Positions 12,951-13,571 of a DNA stretch of 32,000 nucleotides are shown here, one piece after another (within the stretch, counting starts at the first letter, position 1; the number at the start of each line of letters is the position of its first letter). Position numbers and translations under genes: made by a program. The stretch is taken from contig CAKPSF010000001.1 in assembly GCA_934183305.1 (NCBI GenBank), positions 212,931 through 244,930 on the forward strand. The letters run 5' to 3'. Source of the DNA: an uncultured Clostridia bacterium. Lineage in GTDB: Bacteria > Bacillota > Clostridia > TANB77 > CAG-508. Below the pieces are notes generated by a model that was not told where the DNA came from, did not search any database, and saw nothing but the letters and a program-made list of their open reading frames with translations.

Positions 12951-12978
12951 ATTATATAGTATTTTTTCAAAATGTCAA
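12951..12978 (-). promoter_or_regulatory. Promoter that would give a leaderless (or near-leaderless) HNH/SDR transcript
   Basis: On the minus strand: TTGACA (12978-12973), 16 nt, TATAAT (12956-12951), then only ATAATT before the ATG at 12944. No RBS precedes that ATG. Confidence 0.5.
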
Positions 12979-12989
12979 TTGATAGGAAA

Positions 12990-13030
12990 TAAAAAAATCA
13001 AGAATTAAGATTACTCAAAACTCTTGATCT
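12990..13030 (-). terminator. Terminator of the tRNA operon
   Basis: On the minus strand: ATCAAGA...TCTTGAT stem followed by TTTTTTT. The loop is long, so the hairpin is imperfect. Confidence 0.5.
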
Positions 13031-13032
13031 TT

Positions 13033-13328
13033 TGGAGCCACTTGTCCGAATCGAACGGACGACCTACTGATTCATACCACTACAATTTTCATTGCCATTT
13101 TTACATGTTTGCGGTCTGGACTTTCTCTTTACCATAGCTTACGCTTTAGGTACACCGTATAAAGTCTCTACACTCGAATTTCTTCTAGCTCGGGATTAAC
13201 ATATTTTCACTTAGTCTTCCCCGAATTAGCGGTGTCCACTTTATATGTTTCCATATAAAGGTGCAAAATAGTTCTAGATTTTCATCTATTCCACAAGTCA
13301 GTTGCTCTACCAGCTGAGCTAAAGTGGC
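13033..13328 (-). tRNA. tRNA-Thr (anticodon UGU) interrupted by a 220-nt group I intron after U36
   Basis: Exon 1 (13328-13293) is GCCACTTTAGCTCAGCTGGTAGAGCAACTGACTTGT. Exon 2 (13072-13033) is AATCAGTAGGTCGTCCGTTCGATTCGGACAAGTGGCTCCA. Joined, they give a canonical 76-nt cloverleaf with a perfect acceptor (GCCACTT/AAGTGGC), anticodon stem ACTGA/TCAGT, loop CTTGTAA and T arm GTCCG-TTCGATT-CGGAC. The central part matches the B. subtilis tRNA-Thr(UGU) core as I recall it. Confidence 0.9.
13073..13292 (-). ncRNA. Group I self-splicing intron, IC3-like, no internal ORF
   Basis: Hand fold on the minus strand. P1: exon TGT plus GGAATAG pairs with CTATTTTGCA, placing a U-G wobble at the 5' splice site. 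P2: CTTTATATG-GAAA-CATATAAAG. P3: ACACCG/CGGTGT. P4: TTCGGGG/TCCCGAG. P5 carries an ACUAAG/UAUGU tetraloop-receptor-like motif. P6: CTAGAA-GAAA-TTCGAG. J6/7 plus P7: TGTAGAGACTT / AAGTCC with a bulged A. P8: CCTAAAGC-GTAA-GCTATGG, also receptor-like. P9: GCAAT-GAAA-ATTGT. The last intron nucleotide is G. Confidence 0.85.
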
Positions 13329-13334
13329 ATTTAT

Positions 13335-13409
13335 TGGTGACCCCTACGGGAATCGAACCCATGTCTCCGCCGTGAAAGGGCGATGTCTTAACCGCTTGAC
13401 CAAGGGGCC
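13335..13409 (-). tRNA. tRNA-Glu (anticodon UUC)
   Basis: The minus-strand sequence GGCCCCTTGGTCAAGCGGTTAAGACATCGCCCTTTCACGGCGGAGACATGGGTTCGATTCCCGTAGGGGTCACCA folds as a cloverleaf and closely resembles Bacillus tRNA-Glu. Confidence 0.9.
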
Positions 13410-13413
13410 ATAT

Positions 13414-13489
13414 TGGTGAGCCATCGCAGACTCGAACTGCGGACAACTTGATTAAAAGTCAAGTGCTCTACCACCTGAGCTAATGGCCC
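13414..13489 (-). tRNA. tRNA-Lys (anticodon UUU)
   Basis: The minus-strand sequence is GGGCCATTAGCTCAGGTGGTAGAGCACTTGACTTTTAATCAAGTTGTCCGCAGTTCGAGTCTGCGATGGCTCACCA. The cloverleaf is canonical, with anticodon loop CTTTTAA. Confidence 0.9.
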
Positions 13490-13542: not shown

Positions 13543-13571
13543 ATATTACTACATTTTTTGTCATATGTCAA
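13543..13571 (-). promoter_or_regulatory. Promoter of the tRNA Lys-Glu-Thr operon
   Basis: On the minus strand: TTGACA (13571-13566), 17 nt, TAATAT (13548-13543). A GCAGTC...GACTGC leader hairpin follows. Confidence 0.55.

Follow-up and report, generated by a model that had tools for sequence, protein, structure and literature searches.

The split tRNA-Thr(UGU) gene

The subject of this report is a stretch of 32,000 nucleotides (nt) of contig CAKPSF010000001.1 (assembly GCA_934183305.1, positions 212,931-244,930), from an uncultured Clostridia bacterium. This whole stretch is called the window, and all the coordinates given below are window positions. Its minus strand carries an operon of three transfer RNA (tRNA) genes in the order Lys(UUU)-Glu(UUC)-Thr(UGU), and the last of them, the tRNA-Thr(UGU) gene, is split by 220 nt. 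Judging from the sequence evidence, these 220 nt are very probably an authentic IC3-type group I intron, devoid of an open reading frame (ORF) and located at site 36/37 of a functional tRNA-Thr(UGU) gene.

The 5' exon (13293-13328, minus strand) corresponds to nt 1-36 of the tRNA and ends with the anticodon U34-G35-U36; its 36 nt, read from 13328 to 13293, are GCCACTTTAGCTCAGCTGGTAGAGCAACTGACTTGT, the same sequence as the 5' half of uninterrupted genes. The insert (13073-13292, minus strand), read from 13292 to 13073, starts with GGAATAG and finishes with GTGGTATG, i.e., with GGTATG as its last letters, for a total of 220 nt, and lies between anticodon U36 and A37. It is followed by the 3' exon (13033-13072, minus strand), which provides nt 37-76 with the CCA end encoded; its 40 nt, read from 13072 to 13033, are AATCAGTAGGTCGTCCGTTCGATTCGGACAAGTGGCTCCA, again the same as in uninterrupted alleles. 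Because the intron opens with GG and the 3' exon with AA, the splice sites are unambiguous, and the ligated junction is predicted to read ...GACUUGU|AAUCAGUAGG....

Within the window, this tRNA-Thr gene is called neither by ARAGORN in its default mode nor by the Rfam tRNA model. When introns are allowed, ARAGORN does report the gene, as tRNA-Thr(tgt) interrupted at 36-37 by an intron of 220 nt; joining the exons yields 76 nt that form a perfect cloverleaf with anticodon UGU. A preliminary description, made from the letters of this DNA, had placed the interruption after U36, at 13073-13292 of the minus strand, and all of these coordinates hold, in the sequence as in the ARAGORN output.

These boundaries are supported by alleles that lack the insert, which that description had proposed to look for in related genomes and which were indeed found, some of them identical to the predicted ligated product. 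Metagenomes were scanned for empty sites, that is, for uninterrupted genes with the same 5' half, and at least 120 loci were returned. Among the 120 listed, 94 keep Thr next to Glu in an operon (in 86 of them the order is complete, Lys(UUU)-Glu(UUC)-Thr(UGU), and in 8 it is Glu-Thr), and 17 of the 120 have exactly the predicted 76-nt ligated sequence, most of them in the same operon. In addition, two syntenic intron-less loci, L311 and L277, share about 73-74% identity with the window over several kilobases (kb) on both sides, and their alignments to it stop at 13293 and resume at 13072; a multiple alignment displays a clean 220-nt insertion between identical exons. The intron boundaries are therefore fixed independently of any RNA model. 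The canonical cloverleaf and the identical uninterrupted genes found elsewhere both identify the host as a functional tRNA-Thr(UGU) gene.

Structure of the intron

Regarding the nature of the insert, a search of a 471-nt region alone with the Rfam model RF00028 (Intron_gpI) gives 40.7 bits with E = 4.6e-9, and the match joins model positions 1-253 to window positions 13285-13101. The minimum free energy of the intron has a z-score of -3.0 relative to shuffled sequence. Covariation was assessed on 25 distinct Firmicutes copies aligned to an explicit group I structure of 64 pairs, which includes the P7 pseudoknot. In this set, 99.0% of the cells form standard pairs in the P1-P9 structure, and compensatory changes occur in 28 of the 64 pairs (164 cells). 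The alignment has a covariation score of 0.336, which none of 500 shuffles reaches (their value being 0.149), and in a control where the partners were slid by 1-3 columns pairing falls to 37-40%, with at most 6 compensatory pairs. Moreover, RNAalifold unaided finds P1, P2, P3, P4, P5, P6, P8 and the P9 helices.

Helix P1 (13262-13295, 10 pairs) is made by the exon UGU and intron nt 1-7 (13295-13286), which pair with an internal guide, CUAUUUUGCA (13271-13262). Written as DNA, TGT|GGAATAG with CTATTTTGCA, it has 98.4% of its cells paired in the 25 copies and compensatory changes in 4 pairs. The 5' splice site is marked by the U36·G pair, which is U·G in 25 of the 25 copies, and a G-to-A change at intron nt 3, specific to the window, is offset by a C-to-U change in the guide. 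The guide, through its ...UUGCA end, pairs the whole anticodon UGU, so that P1 ends with U36 in the U·G wobble; the UUGCA string is invariant among the 25 copies. As the guide pairs all three anticodon bases, it confers specificity for the UGU anticodon.

The remaining elements are again given on the minus strand. P2 (13239-13260) has 9 base pairs (bp), seven of which show compensatory changes, and is capped by an invariant GAAA loop. P3 is formed by CACCG (13230-13234) and CGGUG (13153-13157), with 100% pairing and compensatory changes in three of its five pairs. P4 (UUCGGGG with UCCCGAG) is invariant and encloses P5, which carries an ACUAAG/UAUGU receptor-type motif (13189-13225 for the whole); one variable pair of P5 occurs as five different pair types among the 25 copies. 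The P6 hairpin, CUAGAA-GAAA-UUCGAG (13173-13188), is also 100% paired, with three of five pairs compensated. The 5' strand of P7 (13162-13168: G, a bulged A, then GACUU), contained in GUGUAGAGACUU, pairs with the 3' strand AAGUCC (13118-13123, joined from 13123 to 13118); both strands are invariant and fully paired in the 25 copies, and P7 is the presumed guanosine-binding helix. P8 (13130-13152) holds a CCUAAA/UAUGG receptor-type motif and has four of seven pairs compensated, and P9 (13076-13115) is a three-way junction made of the P9 stem (ACCGC with GUGGU), P9a, and P9b with its GAAA loop, with compensatory changes in 6 of 13 pairs. The last nucleotide, the terminal or omega G (13073), is invariant in the alignment, and the ending ...TATG is found in all 30 full-length homologues among the matches listed.

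These elements had been anticipated well by the preliminary description. The 10-bp P1 with its U36·G wobble, the omega G, the 9-bp P2 and the P9 hairpin with their GAAA caps, the two motifs ACUAAG/UAUGU in P5 and CCUAAA/UAUGG in P8, and the J6/7-P7 segment GUGUAGAGACU are all present as described, and the last string, which had been compared with the Azoarcus tRNA-Ile intron, recurs in the Azoarcus seed of Williams' alignment (cited below). The P1-P9 core drawn there by hand is borne out by compensatory changes in the 25 homologues, with P4 and P7 always pairable but invariant. The verdict of a compact IC3-like group I intron in a Firmicutes-like genome is one on which Rfam, covariation and intron-less alleles agree. 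An insertion sequence (IS) scar or a random insert is ruled out by the absence of an ORF, the precise boundaries and the conserved RNA structure.

Collectively, the insert displays the P3-P8/P4-P6 core with its P3/P7 pseudoknot (P4 and P7 being compatible, not proven), a U·G pair at the 5' splice site with an internal guide, and a terminal guanosine just before a 3' splice site whose position is fixed by the intron-less alleles. The catalytic core (P3-P8, P4-P6 and the P7 pseudoknot) is thus present and evolutionarily maintained. The assignment to IC3 follows from the lack of P5abc, the GNRA loops on P2 and P9, and the 11-nt-type motifs in P5 and P8. By analogy with the Azoarcus structure, which we take as the basis for reading these motifs as tetraloop receptors, the GAAA loops may dock into the P5 and P8 motifs. 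The GAAA loops of P2 and P9b and the CCUAA of P8 are invariant in the 25 copies. The UAAG/UAUG motif of P5, which the window has, is missing from four of the 25 aligned relatives (L150, L151, L186 and L238; a further copy, L263, is identical to L186), and all these copies keep the P9b GAAA loop that would be expected to dock there.

Several points weigh against a catalytic group I intron at this locus. When the whole window is searched, RF00028 returns no intron match at its gathering score of 50 bits, nor at E <= 0.01, in this case because of loss by the search filters; the match in the region alone is end to end, and its 40.7 bits are below the gathering score. P4 and P7 are uninformative for covariation because they do not vary in the 25 copies. 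The P1 extension is shortened in the window copy, as its short loop in the alignment of the 25 copies makes clear, and inspection by eye reveals no convincing P10 pairing with the 3' exon. Furthermore, catalysis is predicted from sequence, structure and the standard group I mechanism, and the search for copies of tRNA-Thr(UGU) was confined to the sampled loci. With regard to the Rfam score, RF00028 was also run on nine relatives, among which L160 (51.2 bits) and L252 (57.7 bits) pass the gathering score and the seven others are below it: the intron family straddles this cut-off.

If the intron acts as other members of group I do, an external guanosine bound in P7 would attack, after transcription, the bond that follows U36. 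The terminal G (13073) would then occupy P7, and the freed 3' hydroxyl of U36 would attack the bond after this terminal G, so that the exons would be ligated into the 76-nt tRNA and the intron released. During these steps the exons are probably kept together by the anticodon stem (ACUGA with UCAGU), which the intron leaves intact; the stem has this role in the Anabaena pre-tRNA-Leu (Zaug et al. 1993, as cited in PMC3984707). Since the ligated product equals the uninterrupted genes of relatives, the intron would be phenotypically silent if splicing is efficient.

Relatives, distribution, gain and loss

The window copy is one of many. Species-representative genomes were scanned with the exon end CTTGT and two core strings, the exon anchor being added because the core strings alone matched more than 120 viral contigs; the scan gave at least 119 rows, and counts derived from it are lower bounds. 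In at least about 30 of these genomes, an insert of 215-233 nt interrupts tRNA-Thr(UGU) at the position seen in the window, and the 5' exon ends with U36 in 30 of the 30 full-length homologues among the matches listed. Among these matches, the hosts are gut metagenome-assembled genomes (MAGs) named uncultured Clostridia or Clostridium (from human, rabbit and goat samples), Clostridium sp. CAG:492, CAG:245 and UMGS1476, uncultured Bacilli, Candidatus Caccenecus avistercoris, and two marine betaproteobacteria with tRNA-Thr introns of 215-216 nt. Introns of the Thr family range from 217 to 233 nt, and the shortness of the window copy comes from a trimmed P1 extension hairpin. The family is tight: with a profile of it, nhmmer gives no member less than 200 bits and nothing else more than 125 bits, and among the outsiders introns of phage tRNA genes come closest.

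The host gene evolves as a tRNA gene. Five different acceptor stems are found across the homologues (GCCACTT/AAGTGGC, GCCGAAA/TTTCGGC, GCCGCTG/TAGCGGC, GCCGACA/TGTCGGC and GCCGGTT/AACCGGC), each compensated in the 3' exon, beyond the intron, and the host exons are therefore under selection as a tRNA. Within the species of the window, ten gut-metagenome contigs encode an identical neighbouring short-chain dehydrogenase/reductase (SDR) protein; the intron is present in all eight of those that span its full length, with zero differences from the window inside it, and it appears to be fixed within this species. In one contig of the same species (L010:2365-2390), tRNA-Lys and tRNA-Glu seem to be missing; a deletion is ruled out there, as a run of N marks a scaffold gap.

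How this family relates to those already described depends on the source consulted. No tRNA-Thr host is mentioned in a 2014 review of group I introns in bacteria, and the hosts in the GISSD database are only Leu, Arg, fMet and Ile2 according to a preprint by K. P. Williams (bioRxiv, January 2020; doi 10.1101/2020.01.27.920355). The same preprint, based on tFind/TIGER, sorts the 5292 interrupted bacterial tRNA genes that it reports into 21 tRNA/site classes, and its seed alignment includes Thr.5Ug, Thr.3Ug and Thr.2Ug. The earlier statement that a tRNA-Thr(UGU) host in a clostridial-type genome is not among the textbook cases thus stands for reviews and for GISSD, but has to be qualified in view of this preprint. 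The window intron has the features of Thr.5Ug: a tRNA-Thr host, site 5 (36/37), U before the 5' splice site (position -1), a terminal G, an IC3-type core with GUAGAGAC...AGUCC, and a P9 ending in ...aug. The seed of this class, Rba53, differs in that it is GC-rich and its exon ends with GGU, and for this reason it interrupts tRNA-Thr(GGU) rather than the tRNA-Thr(UGU) of the window. It is likely, given what the preprint lists, that Firmicutes tRNA-Thr(UGU) copies are already among Williams' introns. Beyond that preprint, the literature searched yielded neither a report on bacterial tRNA-Thr group I introns nor a paper that cites it.

The closest models in proteobacteria are two introns inserted at the same site, namely that of Azoarcus tRNA-Ile(CAU) and the Agrobacterium-type intron of tRNA-Arg(CCU), which were reportedly described by Reinhold-Hurek and Shub in 1992. 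In the seeds of Williams' alignment, where they correspond to Ile2.5Ug and Arg.5Ug, both are small ORF-less IC3 introns at 36/37 that have P2 and P9 capped by GAAA, motifs of the CCUAAG/UAUGG type in P5 and P8, and an identical GUGUAGAGACU segment; the Arg.5Ug seeds also share the P9 three-way junction and end with GUGGUAUG. The window intron differs from them in its host tRNA, in its guide (UUGCA with UGU), in its very low content of guanine plus cytosine (GC), and in belonging to a gut Firmicutes. In addition, its J3/4 is CUAAUUCGG and its J7/3 is UUUAUACGG, whereas the proteobacterial seeds have UCAAAUUCGG and UAGACGG. The cyanobacterial and plastid introns of tRNA-Leu(UAA) (Leu.3Ug) likewise place an IC3 core in the anticodon loop and leave the anticodon stem intact, but they are inserted after U34, and not after U36 as in the window.

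As to size, the Anabaena tRNA-Leu(UAA) intron has 249 nt and contains GUGCAGAGACU, and the Azoarcus intron has 205 nt. The suggestion that the window intron is among the smallest natural group I ribozymes has to be dropped, since many tRNA introns are called at 187-213 nt and those of betaproteobacterial tRNA-Thr measure 215-216 nt: among tRNA introns of this type, a length of 220 nt is ordinary.

The introns of phage tRNA genes in IMG/VR share with the window intron 70-78% identity across the core, and have sizes of 187-260 nt, many being called by ARAGORN at 187-213 nt; they differ in that they score 75-125 bits (nhmmer) against the Thr-family profile and occupy other host tRNAs and insertion sites. 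The same IC3 core strings are carried by more than 120 viral contigs (L011-L144, IMG/VR; examples are L071, L044, L073, L079, L124, L024 and L083), mostly inside split phage tRNA genes, among them those for Leu (UAA/CAA), Arg (UCU/CCU), Pro, Lys, Met, and suppressor-like anticodons (cta, tca, tta). According to the 2014 review, all the phage introns seen so far were in protein-coding genes, and tRNA introns are not discussed in a preprint on stop-codon recoding in phages (doi 10.1101/2021.08.26.457843). One phage tRNA-Thr(UGU) (L132:2430-2598, IMGVR_UViG_3300047548_001418) has a 210-nt group I intron after U34, not U36, which is the insertion site of tRNA-Leu(UAA) and of the Thr.3Ug class in Williams' preprint. 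The nearest relative outside the Thr family, among the matches listed, is L141:1859-2081 (IMGVR_UViG_3300031957_002393; nhmmer 124.5 bits), where the intron is followed by an apparent tRNA-Leu-type 3' half with a long variable arm; its 5' half was looked for and not found. A blastn search against 50,697 deposited phage genomes yielded as sole match a 735-kb uncultured megaphage (LR756501.1 and LR756503.1:190296-190393), aligned at 75% identity with the 3' half of the core; its record carries no annotation.

Two other groups of tRNA introns came to light. Genes for tRNA-Ser(UGA) are split after U34 by introns of 211-255 nt in Burkholderiales, Steroidobacteraceae and Acidobacteria (L145, L155, L161, L165, L177, L182, L187 and others), which fits the Ser.3Ug class of Williams' preprint. 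Many loci of Acetobacteraceae and Azospirillum in the genome scan have the classical tRNA-Arg(CCU) intron, mislabelled His or Tyr by ARAGORN.

Within the Thr family, the intron is found in two operon contexts: Lys-Glu-Thr, as in the window and often with a tRNA-Lys(CUU) about 5 kb away, and Val-Thr-Tyr-Gln-Lys, in MAGs named Bacilli. Loci with and without the intron intermingle when they are ordered by the similarity of their flanking proteins, and the nearest syntenic relatives of the window among the matches listed, L277 and L311, have no intron. On a neighbour-joining tree of the SDR protein from 92 syntenic loci, 14 of them with the intron, its presence requires 9 state changes, compared with a mean of 13.2 and a minimum of 10 under random labelling; the distances between introns correlate weakly with the SDR distances (Spearman 0.31). 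This pattern suggests repeated loss, transfer, or both. The patchiness is no more than suggestive because it comes from one short gene, a distance method and uneven sampling.

A possible reading of these data, and a somewhat doubtful one, is that the ORF-less intron is currently mobile among the tRNA-Thr(UGU) genes of gut Firmicutes, through reverse splicing, operon recombination or carriage by phages, and is not just an old vertical passenger. The patchy presence on the SDR tree, with 9 changes for 14 intron-bearing loci out of 92, speaks for it, as do the intron-less state of the closest listed relatives, the occurrence of homologous introns in two operon contexts and in MAGs named as different classes, the weak tracking of host distances, and the abundance of related introns in phage tRNA genes. 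However, the intron encodes no homing endonuclease, it is apparently fixed within this species, and repeated precise loss would yield an identical pattern; moreover, the tree was built from a single protein of 240 residues with a simple distance method, and the intron-bearing and intron-less loci were drawn from different collections. We propose tentatively that, in a family-level group of low-GC gut Firmicutes, an intron without a homing endonuclease may be repeatedly gained or lost at one conserved chromosomal site, namely tRNA-Thr(UGU) in the Lys-Glu-Thr operon, and is shared with a second lineage in another operon, related introns being common in the tRNA genes of gut phages. If this is true in the form of gain, by reverse splicing or by phage or recombination transfer, these loci would be a natural system for the study of ORF-less group I mobility between close empty and filled sites.

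The host gene, its operon and the consequences for annotation

A genuine intron in a functional gene, as favored here, has to be set against the view that the split gene is dead or redundant and that an uninterrupted tRNA-Thr(UGU) elsewhere does the work. This is very unlikely. In its favor, the search covered only the sampled loci, and some contigs of this species end inside the tRNA cluster, as a repeated tRNA sequence would cause. Yet at least 25 species have kept the exons as well as the intron intact, with compensatory changes in the acceptor and T stems across the intron and in 28 intron pairs, which is a mark of purifying selection and not of decay. In addition, zero substitutions are seen inside the intron within the species, and no second tRNA-Thr(UGU) occurs in loci of up to 8 kb from intron-bearing relatives.

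It is also very improbable that the intron serves as a gate on the supply of tRNA-Thr(UGU), responding to conditions such as Mg2+ or guanosine nucleotide levels through splicing that needs a host protein or is slow on purpose: limiting the tRNA for ACA, the dominant Thr codon, would have broad effects, and the c-di-GMP-triggered group I ribozyme of Clostridium difficile is a precedent (Lee et al. 2010, as cited in PMC3984707), but the intron has neither a sensor domain nor any conserved element in addition to the standard IC3 core, and many close relatives have the same operon without the intron, and therefore no essential regulatory role is indicated.

Regarding the surroundings of the intron-bearing gene, the two genes that precede it are tRNA-Lys(UUU) (13414-13489, minus strand; Rfam tRNA model 67 bits), the first of the operon, and tRNA-Glu(UUC) (13335-13409, minus strand; 63.4 bits), the second, both also called by ARAGORN. 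Upstream of tRNA-Lys, a promoter-like site (13543-13571, minus strand) has TTGACA, a 17-nt spacer and TAATAT, matches the consensus at 10 of 12 positions, and on that match may serve the operon. At the other end, a hairpin read by eye (12991-13028, minus strand), with AUCAAGA pairing UCUUGAU before a U run, is a low-certainty candidate terminator; the terminator scan makes no call there because the stem has too few G-C pairs. Just downstream of tRNA-Thr, a sigma-70 consensus with 12 of 12 positions matched (TTGACA, 16-nt spacer, TATAAT; 12951-12978, minus strand) precedes an ORF of 133 residues and the SDR gene.

On the opposite side, the operon is adjoined by a run of genes on the plus strand (14052-19372) at 22-24% GC, which resembles a mobile element: it includes a TraG/VirD4-like coupling-protein homologue (weak Pfam matches), two ORFs without matches, and DnaB_2-type and IstB/DnaA-like genes. 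In many intron-bearing and intron-less relatives the TraG-like gene is found in synteny, at 56-69% protein identity, and the region is therefore not a recent insertion.

In the ORFs of the window, ACA accounts for 284 of the 465 Thr codons (61%). As default ARAGORN and the Rfam gathering score miss the gene and the intron, respectively, genomes of this kind seem to be without tRNA-Thr(UGU), the reader of their commonest Thr codon; tRNAscan-SE 2.0 is, according to the paper that presents it, not designed for the detection of group I introns. The main practical consequence is that routine annotation will miss most of this intron family. Neither a new mechanism nor a new class is revealed by these data. 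What they add to the known IC3 tRNA introns is a family, well represented in uncultured gut Firmicutes, whose many natural variants and matched intron-less sites are useful for the study of ribozyme folding at very low GC, and of intron gain and loss.

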